Virus record (IMG/VR): IMGVR_UViG_2695420565_000021
Coordinates: 1 to 7,128 of that record
Source: a virus
Lineage: Duplodnaviria > Heunggongvirae > Uroviricota > Caudoviricetes
Length of the DNA: 7,128 nt
Reading direction: 5' to 3' (one strand)
The position numbers and the translations under genes are program-made. Shown here piece after piece: positions 1 through 7,128 of the stretch. Within the stretch, counting starts at the first letter, position 1. Every line of letters starts with the position of its first letter. Below the pieces are notes generated by a model, which was not told where the DNA came from, did not search any database, and was given only the letters and a program-made list of their open reading frames with translations.

Positions 1-140
1 CTCTCGTCTGGGGAATATCTCCCCGGCAGCCTTCAGGGAAAAATATCATCAGATAGCTGCTTAAAAAAAGAACAAATGGTAGTGTCCGCTATTGTCAGTA
101 CACCTCAAATATCGCAAAACTCAAGCGATACGAGCTTGAT

Positions 141-305
141 ATGGATGGTTGTGACTCGTTCGGTCAGGATTGTGGCGCTGACATGACTGAAGATTCTGAT
201 GGCGATTATGTCCTGTTTGATGACGTGGTTAAGTTGTTTGAGTTTGATACAACCACTCAGAAGATAGAAAGCCCAGCAAAGGAGGCAACCAGTGAGCGAA
301 ATTAA
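141..305 (+). CDS. Doubtful small acidic protein (54 aa)
   Basis: ATG at 141 to TAA at 303-305, found by hand translation; below the length cutoff of the supplied ORF track. Product MDGCDSFGQDCGADMTEDSDGDYVLFDDVVKLFEFDTTTQKIESPAKEATSERN has about 15 Asp/Glu against 4 Lys/Arg. Only a weak SD (GAG about 6 nt upstream). Its 3' end overlaps the next gene start by 14 nt in another frame. Confidence 0.25.
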   Translation: MDGCDSFGQDCGADMTEDSDGDYVLFDDVVKLFEFDTTTQKIESPAKEATSERN

Positions 306-942
306 TTACCAGGCACTGCGTGAGGCGGCAGAGCGTGCAATTCCGGCAATGGAACGCCTGTTAATGTTGCCAGTTGATGATGATTTGTTAAGTGAACAGG
401 AACTTAAAGATTACGGTGTGGATATTGATGCGCTCAACGCCTTCAAATTTCTGGCCGGACCAGAAACCGTGCTGGCACTACTGGATGAATGGGAAAGAAA
501 CCAGCAATACATCAAACGCCGCGACCAGGAGAACGAGGATATTGCGCTTACGGTTGGGAAGCTGCGCGTTGAGCTGGAAGGCAAAGACAGCAAAATAGCC
601 AATCTTACCGCCGAACGCGATGCTCTTCGTGAAGGTGAGATGGGCGACGCTAGGCATAGCAACACACGGGCCGCAGCTGATATCTACTTCCAACTGGTCG
701 AGGAATGCGAAATTCCTGCTGGCGGATCTCTGGTCGAGTACGTTGACGATATGCGCGAGAAGCTGGAAGCCGCAGAGAAGCGGATTGCTGAACTGGAAGC
801 GCGGGAAATATCGCTCCCAGAACGTAGCAGCATGCTTCATCGAACAGATTTTCACGAGGATTACCAAACGGTAATGGCATACAAAGTTTCTGAAGTCATC
901 GATGCAATCCGCGCTACTGGCATTCGCATCAAAGGAGAGTGA
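292..942 (+). CDS. Ea22-like prophage early-region protein with coiled-coil segments (216 aa)
   Basis: GTG start at 292 preceded by GGAGG at 281-285 (6-nt spacer). The translation has heptad-like charged stretches (IKRRDQENEDIALTVGKLRVELEGKDSKIANLTAERDALREGE, MREKLEAAEKRIAELEAREI) and an N-terminus MSEINYQALREAAE and C-terminus GIRIKGE that I recall as characteristic of lambda Ea22 and relatives. This is a memory-based assignment, not a search result. Confidence 0.7.
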   Translation: MSEINYQALREAAERAIPAMERLLMLPVDDDLLSEQELKDYGVDIDALNAFKFLAGPETVLALLDEWERNQQYIKRRDQENEDIALTVGKLRVELEGKDSKIANLTAERDALREGEMGDARHSNTRAAADIYFQLVEECEIPAGGSLVEYVDDMREKLEAAEKRIAELEAREISLPERSSMLHRTDFHEDYQTVMAYKVSEVIDAIRATGIRIKGE

Positions 943-943
943 T

Positions 944-1801
944 ATGAGCACTATCACTAAAGAACGTATCGAATTGTTCATTAAATCCCCGCTTGAAAAC
1001 GGGCTTACTCGTGGCGAACAAATGGAACTGGCACGAATTGCGCTGGCATCGCTGGAAGCAGAGCCTGTGGCGTATATCATTCAGGACTCTGACGCTCGTA
1101 GTCGTGGAGAGAAAGGCATCCTTCGCTATTTCGCAAATATCAGCGACGAGGATATAAACGAGTACGAAATTACCGTAACTCCGCTTTACGCCGCCCCTCC
1201 AGAGACGGTATCTGTGCCTGATGCGATGGAAATGGATGATGACTTTGACAGCGCGTTTGAACACGGAAAAGCTGTCGGCTGGAACGCCTATCGCGCAGCC
1301 ATGCTTCAGTCCGGAAACTTTCGGGAAAACAAGAATTCGTCAACCAATAATTTTCGTGAAATCGCGGAAACGTCAACCAACTATCCGGTAATTCCTAGTG
1401 AGGTGTTGTCCGCAATCCAGAAGGTTGCCAAGATTCGTGCCGATTTCGATGATTTTGACGGTGACAGGCGAGGTATCTGTGATTGTCTGGATGAGGCTGA
1501 GCAAGAGCTTATCGTTACCATTAACAAATATGCCAGTCAGTTGGCAGCAGAACCTATCGCGCCTAATGACGTTCGAGAGCAGACAGCCATTCCGCAAGTT
1601 CCGGTAACTCCGGATGGTTGGATAAGCTGTAGTGAGCGAATGCCGAAAGGGTATGCTGATGTGTTAGTGACCGATGGCGAGCATGTCGAGGTTAAATGGT
1701 GGGATGAATCTGGGTATTGGAATAGTTGGACGGAACTTAACTCAGATATCTTTGCCGATGAAATAACTCACTGGATGCCGCTACCAGAGCCTCCACTTTG
1801 A
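944..1801 (+). CDS. DUF551 domain-containing prophage protein (285 aa)
   Basis: ATG at 944 with SD AAGGAGAG at 932-939, one nucleotide after the upstream TGA (940-942), which suggests translational coupling. The C-terminus (PDGWISCSERMPKGYADVLVTDGEHVEVKWWDESGYWNSWTELNSDIFADEITHWMPLPEPP) matches the DUF551 signature as I recall it. The ORF-track start at 902 is in the same frame but lies inside the upstream gene and has no SD. Confidence 0.8.
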   Translation: MSTITKERIELFIKSPLENGLTRGEQMELARIALASLEAEPVAYIIQDSDARSRGEKGILRYFANISDEDINEYEITVTPLYAAPPETVSVPDAMEMDDDFDSAFEHGKAVGWNAYRAAMLQSGNFRENKNSSTNNFREIAETSTNYPVIPSEVLSAIQKVAKIRADFDDFDGDRRGICDCLDEAEQELIVTINKYASQLAAEPIAPNDVREQTAIPQVPVTPDGWISCSERMPKGYADVLVTDGEHVEVKWWDESGYWNSWTELNSDIFADEITHWMPLPEPPL

Positions 1802-1897
1802 AAGCGAAGCTTATACATATCTTTTACATCAGCAATCTATTGTTAATCTCCAATCAATGTTACGTTGTCATCTCACTCATGCTTTGGAGGTAGTGAT

Positions 1898-2077
1898 ATG
1901 TCTTGTCCAAAATGCGGTTCTGGAAATATTGCAAAAGAAAAAACAATGCGTGGATGGTCTGATGATTATGTGTGCTGCGATTGCGGATACAACGACTCTA
2001 AAGACGCATTTGGAGAGCGTGGTAAAAACGATTTTGTCAAAATTAATAAAGAACGCGAAGGCAACGAAAAAAGCTAA
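1898..2077 (+). CDS. Small Cys4 zinc-ribbon protein (59 aa)
   Basis: ATG at 1898 preceded by GGAGG at 1886-1890 (7-nt spacer). Product MSCPKCGSGNIAKEKTMRGWSDDYVCCDCGYNDSKDAFGERGKNDFVKINKEREGNEKS has a CxxC...CCxC cysteine arrangement and a Lys/Glu-rich tail. The gene is AT-rich relative to its neighbours and is followed by an intrinsic terminator. The ORF-track start at 1865 is a TTG without SD. Confidence 0.6.
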   Translation: MSCPKCGSGNIAKEKTMRGWSDDYVCCDCGYNDSKDAFGERGKNDFVKINKEREGNEKS

Positions 2078-2140
2078 TTTATTTATTCATATATGAAAAC
2101 AATGTAACCAATATTCGAATTGAAGAACTGAAAGAACACC

Positions 2141-2164
2141 AAGCCGCCTGATGGCGGTTTTTTT
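2141..2164 (+). terminator. Rho-independent terminator downstream of the zinc-ribbon gene
   Basis: Stem AGCCGCC (2142-2148) / GGCGGTT (2153-2159) with loop TGAT, running into a run of 7 T (2158-2164); located 64 nt after the zinc-ribbon stop codon. Confidence 0.55.
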
Positions 2165-2178
2165 ATTGGAGACAAGAA

Positions 2179-2523
2179 ATGTCAGATTTGGCTATGAAGG
2201 TTTTGAAATGGCAATCGACTGGCGATGTCGGCATCAGTAGCGCAACTCTTGCCTCAATCGCATGTGGACTGAAAAAGAATATCTATGGTCATCACTTCGG
2301 CGCTCCACATGACGCAGCAGACTTCCGGCGATGCGTTGCACTTGTTGAGCAGATTCCAGAAATCAGAGATTCATTCGACAAGGTTGCAAAGCGCGTTCCG
2401 GCATTCAAAGGAATCCTCAACGAATGGGATTCACTCGTTGCTCTGTTGAAGTCTGAAATGAAGATACACGAAAACAAAGCACCAGAGACTTACAGAAGAA
2501 TTAGCGAGCTACGCAAGGACTAA
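2179..2523 (+). CDS. Hypothetical prophage accessory protein (114 aa), family not recognised
   Basis: ATG at 2179 with GGAG at 2168-2171 (7-nt spacer). Soluble-looking product with no obvious transmembrane segment (MSDLAMKVLKWQSTGDVGISSATLASIACGLKKNIYGHHFGAPHDAADFRRCVALVEQ...). Flanked by a terminator upstream and hairpin plus T-tract downstream. Confidence 0.6.
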   Translation: MSDLAMKVLKWQSTGDVGISSATLASIACGLKKNIYGHHFGAPHDAADFRRCVALVEQIPEIRDSFDKVAKRVPAFKGILNEWDSLVALLKSEMKIHENKAPETYRRISELRKD

Positions 2524-2524
2524 C

Positions 2525-2543
2525 GCCTCACACTCGATGAGGC
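2525..2543 (+). other. Perfect 6-bp stem-loop immediately after the 114-aa gene stop, without a U-tract
   Basis: GCCTCA (2525-2530), loop CACTCGA, TGAGGC (2538-2543). It starts 2 nt after the TAA at 2521-2523. Could be an RNA-stabilising or processing hairpin rather than a terminator. Confidence 0.3.
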
Positions 2544-2562
2544 CTGTACATATCTGATAGAT

Positions 2563-2585
2563 CCGCTATATGGCGGTTTCTTTTT
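2563..2585 (+). terminator. Weak candidate intrinsic terminator upstream of the AlpA-family gene
   Basis: Short GC stem CCGC (2563-2566) / GCGG (2573-2576) followed by TTTCTTTTT (2577-2585). The sequence resembles the terminator at 2141-2164 (CCGCCTGATGGCGGTTTTTTT versus CCGCTATATGGCGGTTTCTTTTT). Confidence 0.35.
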
Positions 2586-2600
2586 GCCTGGAGAATTAAG

Positions 2601-2792
2601 ATGACCGATACCAGCCTGATTCCTGAGAAAGAAGTGATGAACAAGCTCGGTGTTTCATCACGTCAGACAATCTGGAACTATACCAAACGGCACGGATTTC
2701 CGAAGCCAGTCAGAACCCACCCCAAATCATACCTTCGTGAAGCTGTTGAGGGGTGGATTCTTAACGGTGGCGTTAATCAGAAATGCTCCTGA
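2601..2792 (+). CDS. alpA: AlpA/Xis-family helix-turn-helix protein (prophage excisionase or integrase regulator), 63 aa
   Basis: ATG at 2601 with GGAG at 2590-2593 (7-nt spacer). Translation shows the AlpA-type HTH pattern (KLGVSSRQTIWNYTKRHGFPKPVRTHPKSYLREAVEGWI). Lies directly beside the integrase. An in-frame ATG at 2638 is an alternative start. The gene symbol reflects family membership only. Confidence 0.7.
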   Translation: MTDTSLIPEKEVMNKLGVSSRQTIWNYTKRHGFPKPVRTHPKSYLREAVEGWILNGGVNQKCS

Positions 2793-3951
2793 TGTGCCAG
2801 AACAATTTATCAGCGTGAAGCTCATACGCTTTGCGCTGAGCCTCTATCCAGTCGTGTTTATTGTATACGGACATTATCCCGCCAAGTTCATGACCGAGCA
2901 TTCGCTCAGTAACATGAGGCTCGACATTCATCTCGGACAGACGTGTAACAAGCGTTCTTCTGAAATCATGTGTTCGCCAGTAACCTAGATCCATCCCTCC
3001 CCTTATTCTATTTACGAATCGGTTGGCTGCAGCGATGCTGATCGGTTTGTTTATGTCTTCTCCAGGGAAAAGAACATCATTGTACGTTGTCATGGCCTTT
3101 TCGAGAAAAGGCTTAATTTGTTCGAATATTGGACGACGGATAACATTACCCATCTTGCTATGCTCTTTCGGTACGGTCCATACGTTGTCCAGCAGGTCAA
3201 ATTCTGTCTTTGTTGCCAGCCTAAGCTCTGAGAGCCTCGCCCCCCACAGCATAAGCATCTGATGAAGGAGCTTATTTGACGTAGACGCACGGCTTCTTTC
3301 AATAGCAAGCCAAATCTTAGCCAGTTCGTGATACGACAGTACCCGATCCCCTACCTCAGCGCGGGAGCCGAAGTCCCTTGGTTGGATGCTCATAATTGCG
3401 CAACTATCTATCAACTGACGCCGCATGCACCAACTTATTGCTGATCTTAGTTGACTTAGCACCTGCCTTGCTCGGCGTGGATTATCTCTTTCTTCTTCGG
3501 TAAGCAGGTCAACCCATTGCTTAACCGTGATAGAAGATGCCGGACGATTAGGAAAGGCGTCATGCATGCGCTTCATAACCGTTGATCGGTAAAGTGCCTG
3601 GGTCTTTTCTCTGAGAGTTGTAGAGACGTAGTTGTCGAACCAGTAGTCGAGACACTGGGCGACCGTCATGGAGTTCTCCACCTTCTCTTCAAAATAAGTG
3701 CGTGGATCCGTTCCTGAGAAATAGAGCTTTCGCAAGTCAGCAGTGATCTGTCTGGCATCCTTCAAAGACAGGGATGGGTATCGACCAAGCCCAAGTCGAT
3801 TAGGCTTGCCATGCCAGCGATAGCGGTACTGGAACTGGATGACCCCCTTCGGTGAAATTCGTACGCTGAGGCCATCGGCATCAGCCACTTCTTGTGGGCC
3901 CGAATATGGTTTACCATAAATAGTACGCAGTTTTGTGTCGCTTATAGCCAT
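2773..3951 (-). CDS. int: Tyrosine-type site-specific integrase of the P4/IntS type (392 aa)
   Basis: Full-length - strand ORF. N-terminal arm-binding-like region (LSVRISPKGVIQFQYRYRWHGKPNRLGLGRYPSLSLKDAR) and C-terminal catalytic signature (HDFRRT as the H-x-x-R box, and SVYNKH with the candidate catalytic Tyr). No SD before the ATG. Family named from memory of the fold signature. Confidence 0.9.
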   Translation of the reverse strand: MAISDTKLRTIYGKPYSGPQEVADADGLSVRISPKGVIQFQYRYRWHGKPNRLGLGRYPSLSLKDARQITADLRKLYFSGTDPRTYFEEKVENSMTVAQCLDYWFDNYVSTTLREKTQALYRSTVMKRMHDAFPNRPASSITVKQWVDLLTEEERDNPRRARQVLSQLRSAISWCMRRQLIDSCAIMSIQPRDFGSRAEVGDRVLSYHELAKIWLAIERSRASTSNKLLHQMLMLWGARLSELRLATKTEFDLLDNVWTVPKEHSKMGNVIRRPIFEQIKPFLEKAMTTYNDVLFPGEDINKPISIAAANRFVNRIRGGMDLGYWRTHDFRRTLVTRLSEMNVEPHVTERMLGHELGGIMSVYNKHDWIEAQRKAYELHADKLFWHIRSISD

Positions 3952-4132
3952 AAATAATATTTGGTACGCTCAGAAATAATAGTTTGGTACACACCTGGTA
4001 CACAATATCACATGGACAACAGCGCACAGTAAACAACTATATTTGACGTTCGTAGACATACTCAGGTGAAAAAATGGTTGTTTTTCGAGTTATAACAGAC
4101 AGTTAATTAACTACAGTGGACAATGCTAGACA
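3952..4132. promoter_or_regulatory. Integrase-sbcB intergenic region carrying candidate attachment-site arm repeats and the divergent int and sbcB promoters
   Basis: Direct repeats AAATAATA(G)TTTGGTAC (3952-3967 and 3974-3990), GGTACACA twice with about 10-bp phasing (3987-3994 and 3997-4004), GACAATG twice (4119-4125 and 4129-4135), and CACAG(A)TAAACAAC (4025-4037 here, 4141-4154 inside sbcB). Promoter-like hexamers exist on both strands (for example TATAAC at 4091-4096) but none with a convincing -35/-10 pair. Confidence 0.4.
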
Positions 4133-5557
4133 ATGACAGACACAGATAAACAACCTACCTTCCTCTTTCACGATTACGAAACCTTTGGCACGCACCCCGC
4201 GTTAGATCGCCCTGCACAGTTCGCAGCCATTCGCACCGATAGCGAATTCAATGTCATCGGCGAACCCGAAGTCTTTTACTGCAAGCCCGCTGATGACTAT
4301 TTACCCCAGCCAGGAGCCGTATTAATTACCGGTATTACCCCGCAGGAAGCACGGGCGAAAGGAGAAAACGAAGCCGCGTTTGCCGCCCGTATTCACTCGC
4401 TTTTTACCGTACCGAAGACCTGTATTCTGGGCTACAACAATGTGCGTTTCGACGACGAAGTCACACGCAACATTTTTTATCGTAATTTCTACGATCCTTA
4501 CGCCTGGAGCTGGCAGCATGATAACTCGCGCTGGGATTTACTGGATGTTATGCGTGCCTGTTATGCCCTGCGCCCGGAAGGAATAAACTGGCCTGAAAAT
4601 GATGACGGTCTACCGAGCTTTCGCCTTGAGCATTTAACCAAAGCGAATGGTATTGAACATAGCAACGCCCACGATGCGATGGCTGATGTGTACGCCACTA
4701 TTGCGATGGCAAAGCTGGTAAAAACGCGTCAGCCACGCCTGTTTGATTATCTCTTTACCCATCGTAATAAACACAAACTGATGGCGTTGATTGATGTTCC
4801 GCAGATGAAACCCCTGGTGCACGTTTCCGGAATGTTTGGAGCATGGCGCGGCAATACCAGCTGGGTGGCACCGCTGGCGTGGCATCCTGAAAATCGCAAT
4901 GCCGTAATTATGGTGGATTTGGCAGGAGACATTTCGCCATTACTGGAACTGGATAGCGACACATTGCGCGAGCGTTTATATACCGCAAAAACCGATCTTG
5001 GCGATAACGCCGCCGTTCCGGTTAAGCTGGTGCATATCAATAAATGTCCGGTGCTGGCCCAGGCGAATACGCTACGCCCGGAAGATGCCGACCGACTGGG
5101 AATTAATCGTCAGCATTGCCTCGATAACCTGAAAATTCTGCGTGAAAATCCGCAAGTGCGCGAAAAAGTGGTGGCGATATTCGCGGAAGCCGAACCGTTT
5201 ACGCCTTCAGATAACGTGGATGCACAGCTTTATAACGGCTTTTTCAGTGACGCAGATCGTGCAGCAATGAAAATTGTGCTGGAAACCGAGCCGCGTAATT
5301 TACCGGCACTGGATATCACTTTTGTTGATAAACGGATTGAAAAGCTGTTGTTCAATTATCGGGCACGCAACTTCCCGGGGACGCTGGATTATGCCGAGCA
5401 GCAACGCTGGCTGGAGCACCGTCGCCAGGTCTTCACGCCAGAGTTTTTGCAGGGTTATGCTGATGAATTGCAGATGCTGGTACAACAATATGCCGATGAC
5501 AAAGAGAAAGTGGCGCTGTTAAAAGCACTTTGGCAGTACGCGGAAGAGATTGTCTAA
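4133..5557 (+). CDS. sbcB: Exodeoxyribonuclease I (exonuclease I, 3'-5' ssDNA exonuclease), 474 aa
   Basis: Full-length ORF whose translation from residue 9 onward matches E. coli SbcB as I recall it (FLFHDYETFGTHPALDRPAQFAAIRTD... to ...ALWQYAEEIV). The first 9 residues (MTDTDKQPT) differ from the K-12 N-terminus I remember (MMNDGKQQST). No clear SD. Confidence 0.95.
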   Translation: MTDTDKQPTFLFHDYETFGTHPALDRPAQFAAIRTDSEFNVIGEPEVFYCKPADDYLPQPGAVLITGITPQEARAKGENEAAFAARIHSLFTVPKTCILGYNNVRFDDEVTRNIFYRNFYDPYAWSWQHDNSRWDLLDVMRACYALRPEGINWPENDDGLPSFRLEHLTKANGIEHSNAHDAMADVYATIAMAKLVKTRQPRLFDYLFTHRNKHKLMALIDVPQMKPLVHVSGMFGAWRGNTSWVAPLAWHPENRNAVIMVDLAGDISPLLELDSDTLRERLYTAKTDLGDNAAVPVKLVHINKCPVLAQANTLRPEDADRLGINRQHCLDNLKILRENPQVREKVVAIFAEAEPFTPSDNVDAQLYNGFFSDADRAAMKIVLETEPRNLPALDITFVDKRIEKLLFNYRARNFPGTLDYAEQQRWLEHRRQVFTPEFLQGYADELQMLVQQYADDKEKVALLKALWQYAEEIV

Positions 5558-5599
5558 TTTGAAGCCTTCGCCGCTGGTACGGCGGAGGACAATGTTGAG

Positions 5600-5827
5600 T
5601 CAGGCTTTTTGAACGGTGATGCTCCACGCTGCATCGCCAATCTGCTGATAATCGGTGATGGCATGTCCTTCTTCTGCCGCCCACTGTGGGATTGCTTCAG
5701 TTGCCTGGGTGCAATCAAACTCAATCACTAACTCATCGCCGCTGACCATTTCTGCCAGAGCTGCTTTTGCTTCTATGAGTGGAAACGGACAGACCTGCGT
5801 CACCACATCCAGCTTTTTAATCACCAT
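5600..5827 (-). CDS. yeeD: TusA-like sulfur-carrier protein YeeD (75 aa)
   Basis: Small - strand ORF with the TusA-family CPFP motif (MVIKKLDVVTQVCPFPLIEAKAAL...), 13 nt downstream of yeeE on the same strand (operon arrangement), convergent with sbcB. Confidence 0.9.
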   Translation of the reverse strand: MVIKKLDVVTQVCPFPLIEAKAALAEMVSGDELVIEFDCTQATEAIPQWAAEEGHAITDYQQIGDAAWSITVQKA

Positions 5828-5840
5828 CTTTACACCTTAC

Positions 5841-6899
5841 TTAATTTGCCGCAGCAGTTGCCAGTCGCGCCTTACGCTGCGGTCGAACATACACAAGCCA
5901 GGACGCAGTCCAGACTCCGAGAATCATAAATACAAGGCCAATCCAGCCCTGCCAGGTCATCATTGCAGTCATAACCAGTCCATTACCGATAGAGCAACCA
6001 CCTGCAATACTGGCACCGAAGCCCATCAGTACACCACCTAACCCGCTACGTAATGTTGTTTGTGCATCAGCTGCGCGAACGCGGAACTCACGGCTCGCTT
6101 TGGCTGCAATAAATGACCCCACGAAGATCCCTAACACCAGGAAAACGCCCCAGTTAATGTATTTCATGTCACCCGCGACCAGAAATTGCAGAATATTGGC
6201 CGTTGGGGAAGTGATTCCTAACCCAAACATGCGTCCGGTTGCTTCACTCAGGGGCCAGGCTAAAAGCGCAATCAAACCGATGAGTACAGCAGTGACAAAG
6301 GGATGCCAGCGTTTTTCAAACAGAATATGAGCGATCCCGGTTCGGCGCGGCGGTAAGGTCGCGACTTTGAGTTTTGGCTTCTTCAACTCTTTCATCACCA
6401 CCCAGAGCGTTATCACCAGCAAAACGGCAACCAACGGCCACACAGACAAATTAAAAGTCTCAGCAATAGAGTTATGTTCAGTACTGTAGTGCTGCAAGGT
6501 TTGATTTAAACCACTGGCATGTGGAGAACGCATCACCGCACTCATCACCATATAAGTGAAAAGCGCGATCCAACTGCCGATCAATCCCTCACCCGCGCGA
6601 TACCAGGTCCCGGTGGCACATCCACCCGCCAGAACAATTCCCAGCCCGAAGATATACCCACCTATAACAGTACCAAGCCACGGGAACGCCCCGGCTTCGT
6701 AAGTCAGTAGGCCCGCCTGAATTAACGCAAAAACCCCCACGCTTTGTACCGAAATTGCAATCAGCAAGGCGTAAAACATGCGATTATTTTTCACGATATA
6801 CATATCGCGAAAACCACCTGTCAGGCAAAAACGCCCACGCTGCATGACAAATCCCAGCAGAGCACCACAAATTAGCCCGCTTAATATCATTGAAAACAT
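5841..6899 (-). CDS. yeeE: YeeE/YedE-family inner-membrane transporter (thiosulfate uptake), 352 aa
   Basis: Long - strand ORF encoding a highly hydrophobic multi-pass membrane protein with repeated Cys-containing motifs (RGRFCLTGGFRD, GGCATGTWYRAGEG, GGCSIGNG) typical of YeeE/YedE. Conserved position upstream of yeeD. Confidence 0.9.
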   Translation of the reverse strand: MFSMILSGLICGALLGFVMQRGRFCLTGGFRDMYIVKNNRMFYALLIAISVQSVGVFALIQAGLLTYEAGAFPWLGTVIGGYIFGLGIVLAGGCATGTWYRAGEGLIGSWIALFTYMVMSAVMRSPHASGLNQTLQHYSTEHNSIAETFNLSVWPLVAVLLVITLWVVMKELKKPKLKVATLPPRRTGIAHILFEKRWHPFVTAVLIGLIALLAWPLSEATGRMFGLGITSPTANILQFLVAGDMKYINWGVFLVLGIFVGSFIAAKASREFRVRAADAQTTLRSGLGGVLMGFGASIAGGCSIGNGLVMTAMMTWQGWIGLVFMILGVWTASWLVYVRPQRKARLATAAAN

Positions 6900-7053
6900 A
6901 AATTAATTAACCAGATGAATGTTAATGAGGAAATTATTCATGACTGGTGGAATGCAGACCAATAACCAAATTCTCTAAATTAGAACAAATGGTTATTAAT
7001 GAGGAGTTCGATACAAAAGAATAAAAAAACCGAAGCCAGGTAATGACTCCAAC

Positions 7054-7128
7054 TTACTGATAGTGTTTTATGTTCAGATAATGCCCGATGACCTTGTCAT
7101 GCAGCTCCACCGATTTTGAGAACGACAG
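7054..7128 (-). CDS. plaP: Probable 3' end of an upstream - strand gene, consistent by synteny with plaP/yeeF (partial, continues beyond the window)
   Basis: The only - strand frame open to the window edge reads ...LSFSKSVELHDKVIGHYLNIKHYQ then stop (TAA complement at 7054-7056). Assignment to plaP/yeeF rests on remembered gene order sbcB-yeeD-yeeE-yeeF, not on the 24 visible residues. Confidence 0.4.
   Translation of the reverse strand: MSFSKSVELHDKVIGHYLNIKHYQ

Follow-up and report, generated by a model that had tools for sequence, protein, structure and literature searches.

The tail-to-tail overlap of xis and int in an sbcB-integrated lambdoid prophage: a probable by-product of compact convergent gene packing

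The locus described here raises the question of whether two recombination genes that converge, and share the last bases of their coding regions, are also coupled in their expression. It was found within a 7,128-nt stretch of caudovirus DNA (IMG/VR record IMGVR_UViG_2695420565_000021, positions 1 to 7,128; the window), in which a small plus-strand gene meets an integrase gene on the minus strand. A sequence-only reading of this DNA had proposed that transcription through the plus-strand early genes would run antisense into the integrase gene and might so tie integrase expression to the activity of the early operon. The overlap is real, and probably represents the 3'-3' junction of a phi24B-type recombination module, carried by a lambdoid prophage in the 5' end of sbcB, that has been locked in as a by-product of compaction.

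The small gene, xis (2601..2792, plus strand), is a 63-amino acid (aa) ORF with an ATG start, and is the final plus-strand gene ahead of int. The latter occupies 2773..3951 on the minus strand, also begins with ATG, specifies a 392-aa tyrosine integrase, and is read inward from the att side. The ORF table and the sequence both gave a convergent, tail-to-tail coding overlap of exactly 20 bp (2773..2792, both strands), just as had been claimed. Read directly from the sequence, the Xis stop codon (TGA) is at 2790-2792, and the TTA at 2773-2775 gives, on the complementary strand, the TAA stop of int. In xis, the shared bases run from the third position of the codon for Val58 through codons 59-63 (NQKCS) to the terminating TGA. 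Read on the opposite strand, they contain some of the codon for Ile386, followed by Int codons 387-392 (RSISD) and the stop of int. It had also been argued that no terminator can be situated between the two genes, and this is correct, as overlapping coding ends leave zero intergenic space. The overlap had been made conditional on a xis start at 2601; the end at 2792 was confirmed but the condition is unnecessary, since starts at 2601 and 2638 share that end. The upstream start is nevertheless the better supported of the two on sequence features: a GGAG Shine-Dalgarno motif is present at 2590-2593 (plus strand), with 7 nt between it and the ATG at 2601, and Xis residues 6-12 (LIPEKEV) are kept across the family. 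A start at 2638 was rejected on both counts, and also because Met13 is absent or replaced in the phi24B clade.

By homology, the small ORF is an excisionase (Xis), that is, a winged-helix recombination directionality factor (RDF) of the AlpA/Xis type. It showed 47% identity to the Xis of phi24B (E = 4e-19) and matched PHROG 66, 'excisionase and transcriptional regulator' (E = 1.9e-8), while a family profile matched PDB entry 8c3t, an AlpA family protein, over residues 4-56 (E = 0.0019). The Pfam family Phage_AlpA (PF05930) gave a score of 17.8 bits for Xis (E = 0.0032), under the 21-bit gathering cutoff, and was matched by 9 of 16 relatives, with a best E value of 6.9e-6; from these profile scores, kinship with Phage_AlpA is supported at the level of the superfamily. 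There is also a weak resemblance to Pfam HTH_17, and RefSeq labels the protein a 'helix-turn-helix transcriptional regulator'. The earlier description as an AlpA-family gene therefore holds as a statement of superfamily, but the product is better regarded as the excisionase of the module than as a generic regulator, given its homology to the experimentally validated Xis of phi24B. In that phage, the small ORF at the 3' end of int was recognized as a distant member of the AlpA family and proved by experiment to be an excisionase: Int alone, supplied from an inducible plasmid, failed to resolve an attL/attR substrate, and co-expression of xis and int from one construct confirmed excisionase function by complementation (PMC3064807).

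Int is a P4-type tyrosine integrase with the Pfam domains Arm-DNA-bind_3 (E = 8e-18) and Phage_integrase (E = 1e-16), and was 57% identical to phi24B Int over 391 aa (E = 8e-172). At the DNA level, the int region was 98-99% identical to those of phages Sf101, HK140, mEp234 and 2851, and the region 1..4132 showed 97-99% identity over aligned parts to Stx2c-, Stx1a- and Stx2a-converting phages, as well as to 2851, 1717, Sf101, HK140, mEp234 and HK544. The attL core, TTTCACGATTACG, occurs once in the window (4166..4178, without strand), at the prophage/host junction inside sbcB, and is the exact 13-bp attP core of phages 2851 and Sf101, for which a 13-bp attachment core has been reported (PMC4159516). 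The free-phage genomes of HK140 and Sf101 align with the window up to this core and no further, and to the right of the prophage are sbcB (4133..5557), followed by yeeD and yeeE. These alignments identify the window as the left end of a lambdoid prophage that has integrated at the 5' end of E. coli sbcB. The sbcB start codon, the first 11 codons of the gene (4133..4165) and everything upstream of them consist of phage DNA, which HK140 and Sf101 have too, so that the original 5' end of sbcB and its promoter region are replaced by prophage sequence. The host gene lies in the sense direction for any read-through out of xis.

With int starting at 3951 and directed away from the att core (4166-4178), the promoter of the gene has to be located within the att arm region. 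The sequence between the int start and sbcB (3952..4132, minus strand) is thus a candidate for the int promoter and for att arm sites, functions that are predicted from its position. Direct repeats were found 10-55 bp upstream of the int start (window 3960..4004), with TGGTACACA at 3985 and 3996 (11-bp spacing), and TTTGGTAC at 3960 and 3983. GTAC(A/C) motifs are position-conserved in the relatives and occur also in the region of phi24B where pInt and its start site were mapped. These repeats are candidate arm-type sites for Int or Xis that overlap the int promoter. A sigma-70 consensus scan of positions 2000-4200 returned no match at threshold for a promoter of int or xis. In phi24B, int is inverted relative to its orientation in lambda, and its own promoter, pInt, was mapped by 5'-RACE (Fogg et al. 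2011, NAR 39:2116, PMC3064807); the gene is expressed in uninduced lysogens, and overexpression of CI does not reduce it (PMC3064807). By analogy with this homologue, int of the window would be read inward from a promoter of its own, located between the att core and the int start, and Int would therefore be made independently of the CI/pL circuit. On the same analogy, the supply of Int would be uncoupled from the early operon by design, and not tied to it.

In phi24B, xis is oriented like lambda xis, and the authors placed it under pL/CI control (PMC3064807). In the window, xis is on the same strand as the genes upstream of it, namely Ead/Ea22, DUF551, a zinc-ribbon ORF and phrog_1229. The recombination genes and N are co-stranded in HK140 and phi24B, and the N gene, nutL and pL of this prophage fall outside the window. 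The nearest element to xis is a hairpin, CCGCT-ATAT-GGCGG followed by TTTCTTTTT (2563..2586, plus strand; stem-loop 2563-2576), which ends 15 nt before the xis ATG, and leaves no space for a promoter between itself and the gene. It is weak in the window (-8.2 kcal/mol, z -0.43). A hairpin and T run at -41..-21 from the xis start were present, with differing stems, in several clades and in phi24B, and a rho-independent terminator is annotated at the equivalent spot, directly before xis, in HK140; in a strict hairpin scan upstream of xis, not every clade had one. A second terminator-like hairpin and T run (2141..2170, plus strand; stem-loop 2141-2160; -13.2 kcal/mol, z -2.68) precedes ORF 2179..2523, and its stem sequence, AAGCCGCCTGATGGCGGTTT, was found directly upstream of xis in relatives.

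With T-run hairpins placed before xis, ordinary early transcription should stop short of the gene, and only antiterminated transcripts would pass. Antitermination by N proteins of lambdoid phages lets polymerase pass terminators, and xis, as the last gene of the early-left operon behind one or two hairpins resembling intrinsic terminators, would be made only with antiterminated (N-type) pL transcription after induction, if antitermination operates here as in the lambdoid relatives. Excision would then be gated by the supply of Xis alone. The proposal that plus-strand transcription runs antisense into int is plausible once xis has been reached, and no conserved intrinsic terminator was found on the xis-sense strand inside int, but it took no account of the hairpins before xis, so that it is probably only antiterminated early-left transcripts that reach xis and then run antisense into int.

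Cargo genes upstream of xis differ among the sbcB phages. ORF 2179..2523 (114 aa) is an extra gene in the window; it matches phrog_1229 (no known function), is without a Pfam match, and lies between the two terminator-like hairpins (2141..2586). HK140 does not have this ORF and shows a single terminator directly before xis, and the ORF looks like a moron-type cassette inserted at the end of the early-left operon. Rfam family isrK, a prophage sRNA, gave a sub-threshold match at 2104..2164 (plus strand; 18.3 bits, where the gathering score is 50; E = 0.51) that is probably nothing other than the strong terminator hairpin it covers. Farther upstream, the zinc-ribbon ORF (1865..2077, plus strand) specifies a 70-aa protein with a CxxC...CxxC pattern and weak matches, below threshold, to families of small zinc fingers and of Lar restriction-alleviation proteins. 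A possible equivalent in HK140 is gp31, which is annotated as similar to lambdap35 and ends at the terminator before xis.

Features that could stop or process transcripts were then sought at, and on either side of, the overlap. Folding of 2740-2830 gave no significant structure for the RNA of either strand (z -1.35 and -0.20), the hairpin scan detected no terminator-like element on either strand of the overlap, and no Rfam family matched at its position. A sib-like RNase III hairpin or other structured element was not detectable at or near the overlap, and retroregulation of the lambda sib type was rejected for want of a hairpin, an Rfam match or a conserved fold. A hairpin within int (3094-3113, plus strand) was considered as a terminator for xis and rejected, as it is part of the coding sequence, is weak (-8.2 kcal/mol, z -1.07), and was present only in relatives with Xis at least 95% identical. 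On the minus strand, the interval from the int stop to the xis start held no convincing terminator, the lone match (2616-2603) having a 5-bp stem. The 2563-2576 hairpin is without a T run on that strand, and the next minus-strand candidate is at 2157-2144. It is thus probable that an antisense copy of xis forms part of the int mRNA. More generally, as no terminator separates the two genes, antiterminated xis transcripts would be expected to run antisense across int, and int transcripts across xis. The antiterminated polymerases would ignore weak signals in int, and continue through the int promoter region and attL into sbcB. The reverse effect, in which int transcription proceeds antisense through xis, is no less possible, and a dampening of int or xis by mutual antisense read-through is plausible as a secondary effect.

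Comparison with relatives revealed that the overlap is widespread. Among 75 viral loci evaluated from IMG/VR, with Int proteins 50-100% identical, 71 showed an overlap of one of four lengths, which was 20 bp in 40 loci, 17 bp in 26, 23 bp in four and 14 bp in one, and there were four exceptions. A second set, of 80 loci with one genome per species, included 58 in which an Xis-like ORF adjoined int. This ORF was opposite-stranded and convergent with int in every one of the 58, and the coding ends overlapped by one of these same lengths in 43 (20 bp, 21 loci; 17 bp, 11; 23 bp, 8; 14 bp, 3). The overlap persisted down to about 50% Int identity and 36-57% Xis identity, and the genera represented in the species set included Escherichia, Erwinia, Pantoea, Serratia, Yersinia, Xenorhabdus, Providencia and Gilliamella, among others. 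The more distant Vibrionaceae, Shewanella and Aeromonas (Int 42-48%) were mostly without an adjacent Xis, or showed other geometries. One overlap of 20 bp could readily arise by chance, the probability that some six codons remain free of stops being ~0.75. From these comparisons the overlap is old and its conservation is more than chance would give, with the proviso that the loci share descent and so do not represent independent trials. Selection acting on the layout itself, and not mere lock-in, might explain why the overlap has persisted in many genera.

The junction alignment revealed a fixed point. The int stop, which appears as TTA, TCA or CTA when xis is read, was always located within Xis [V/I/S][N/K] codons directly after a near-invariant GG, and the conserved C-terminal motif of Xis that carries it is GG(V/I)N. 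The geometry of the overlap is stable because the int stop is anchored in these codons, and the length classes are set by the position of the Xis stop, 3-6 codons beyond the anchor. That the overlap length is constantly 2-mod-3 was considered as an independent sign of selection and rejected, since it follows automatically from the conserved stop-codon anchor. The overlap comprises the poorly conserved, variable tails of both Xis and Int; in Xis it encodes only tail, since the match to the domain does not extend beyond about residue 56. In phi24B, the C-terminal seven residues of Xis could not be modelled (PMC3064807).

Instead of overlapping, the two genes were separated by a gap of 2 bp at two loci (L045 and L099) and of 25 bp at another (L125), while about 830 bp lay between them in Pantoea dispersa and two viral contigs (L030, L034 and L087). 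An inserted gene of about 280 codons, at 4184..5029 in L030 and 1773..2603 in L034, starts 1-2 bp past the int stop on the int strand and, at both of the junctions examined, overlaps xis tail-to-tail again (by 13 bp in L030 and 8 bp in L034). The protein specified by this gene has an N-terminal signal or membrane segment, and that of L030 matches phrog_18019 (function unknown). The int/xis module was also detected in genome records that bear the names Chryseobacterium sp., Martelella alba and, for a MAG, Pararhizobium (L105, L110 and L126; Int 53-60%), with overlaps of 20 bp in L105 and 17 bp in L110. These names are outside of the Enterobacterales, and contamination, mislabelling or long-range transfer could account for the occurrence of the module there.

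On the interpretation favored here, the overlap would be the locked-in outcome of compact convergent packing, with the int stop embedded in the GG(V/I)N codons of Xis, and the variable tails of Xis and Int encoded on opposite strands of the same bases. A stricter form of this, in which the overlap and the convergent layout are neutral compaction without any regulatory consequence, and are hard to undo since the two frames share bases, falls somewhat short of an even chance. It would explain why only poorly conserved tails are encoded in the overlap, why the length can vary from 14 to 23 bp as the Xis stop shifts, why the overlap can be lost (the gaps in L045/L099 and L125, and the insertions in L030, L034 and L087), and why there is no RNA structure at the overlap, but it sits less easily with a layout held across many genera of Enterobacterales and with a tail-to-tail overlap that was re-created after gene insertion. 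The latter observation would suit the original proposal, that after induction pL transcription through xis passes antisense over int and lowers Int, whether by collision, promoter occlusion or decay of duplex RNA, and so ties int to the early operon. The convergent layout kept in 58 of 58 species-level loci with Xis also favors it, as does the lack of both intergenic space and a conserved intrinsic terminator on the xis-sense strand in int, and polymerases that arrive at xis are probably terminator-resistant because they have already passed the terminator-like hairpins. Even so, this coupling is doubtful. In the account of phi24B, int is uncoupled from the circuit of the phage, some lineages have a 2-bp or 25-bp gap and no overlap, and, as Int is required for excision, repressing int at induction would be sensible only if pre-made Int suffices.

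Antisense control might instead act in the other direction, with constitutive int transcripts from the att side passing the int stop and traversing the whole 192 nt of xis, thereby quenching leaky xis expression and stabilizing a lysogen in which Int is always present. The phi24B int gene is on in uninduced lysogens, so the stability of the lysogen rests wholly on keeping xis off, and the minus strand has no convincing terminator from the int stop to the xis start. This role is unlikely, however, in that CI repression of pL together with the upstream terminators may already suffice, and the argument for it is purely inferential. That both directions have been selected together, making of the terminator-less, conserved int/xis junction a bidirectional antisense switch in which int RNA silences stray xis in the lysogen and antiterminated pL transcription overrides the int promoter upon induction, is improbable. 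Least credible is a different role for the small protein, as an AlpA-like activator of int (comparable to the activation of intA by AlpA in CP4-57) rather than a directionality factor. The weak similarity to Phage_AlpA and HTH_17, and the RefSeq label, would agree with an activator, but the phi24B homologue acts as an excisionase and xis is not upstream of int but convergent with it; this very improbable reading was set aside on the phi24B complementation data.

The control logic of the module has consequences beyond this prophage. The int-xis-sbcB stretch was found in 528 of 5426 complete E. coli genomes, or about one in ten, and sbcB is where the module directs toxin phages (Stx2c, Stx1a and Stx2a) and a serotype-converting phage of Shigella. 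With this frequency and this cargo, the way in which the module is controlled affects prophage stability and the mobility of toxin phages. Should either gene indeed be dampened by the convergent layout, this would add an extra, RNA-level layer to directionality control of the phi24B type, and such dampening might bear on the multiple-lysogeny behaviour of phi24B. Were the bidirectional switch to be true, the directionality of recombination would be enforced at the level of RNA or transcription, besides that of the Xis protein.

The locus can be compared to several known systems. Phages 2851, 1717, HK140, mEp234, HK544 and Sf101 are sbcB-integrating lambdoids with the same int module, and the feature tables of HK140 and Sf101 list the same AlpA-family and integrase CDSs with an identical 20-bp overlap. 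In lambda itself, int and xis are not on opposite strands, unlike those of the window. There are precedents for downstream sequence or a convergent transcript setting the levels of Int or the balance of lysis and lysogeny, in the sib retroregulation of lambda and the pR/pL convergent-promoter interference of phage 186. In KplE1 (CPS-53), which carries the IntS/TorI pair, the RDF gene is presumably not adjacent to int on the K-12 map. According to the available part of the published account, attL of KplE1 overlaps an int promoter that is subject to repression by Int and the RDF (Panis et al. 2010, PLoS Genet, PMC2951348), and the RDF belongs, like Xis here, to the AlpA/TorI winged-helix group; that part of the account describes no coding overlap between IntS and TorI (PMC2951348). 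The upstream repeats of int would fit an autoregulated, att-overlapping promoter of the KplE1 type, autoregulation having been tested in KplE1; the candidate counterpart here consists of position-conserved repeats. [quoted passage not shown] 2015, PMC4344509), and reports no overlap between them; these elements differ in having unrelated regulators (SetCD-activated promoters), and in being ICEs rather than phages.

The closest counterpart is phi24B (vB_EcoP_24B, HM208303), in which int (236..1405, plus strand) and xis (1389..1571, minus strand) overlap by 17 bp, compared to 20 bp in the window, where the Xis tail is one codon longer, and in which N lies farther along the xis strand. The two share the convergent layout, coding ends that overlap in the same frame, a T-run hairpin before xis and GTAC(A/C) repeats before int. 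The text of the phi24B paper (PMC3064807) contains none of the words "overlap", "antisense" and "convergent", and a literature search found no transcriptome or antisense data for int of Stx or sbcB phages. The module is nevertheless already known and characterized, because the work on the phi24B homologue (PMC3064807) covers the arrangement, and the overlap is visible in public annotation (20 bp in HK140 and Sf101, 17 bp in phi24B), yet undiscussed in the published accounts found. To this known arrangement, sequence comparison adds two small points, the conserved anchor of the int stop codon and the family-wide retention of the overlap. The locus does not represent a new kind of system, but is a homologue of the phi24B module that differs in its attachment site, which is sbcB here, whereas phi24B Int has been described as extremely promiscuous in its selection of integration sites.
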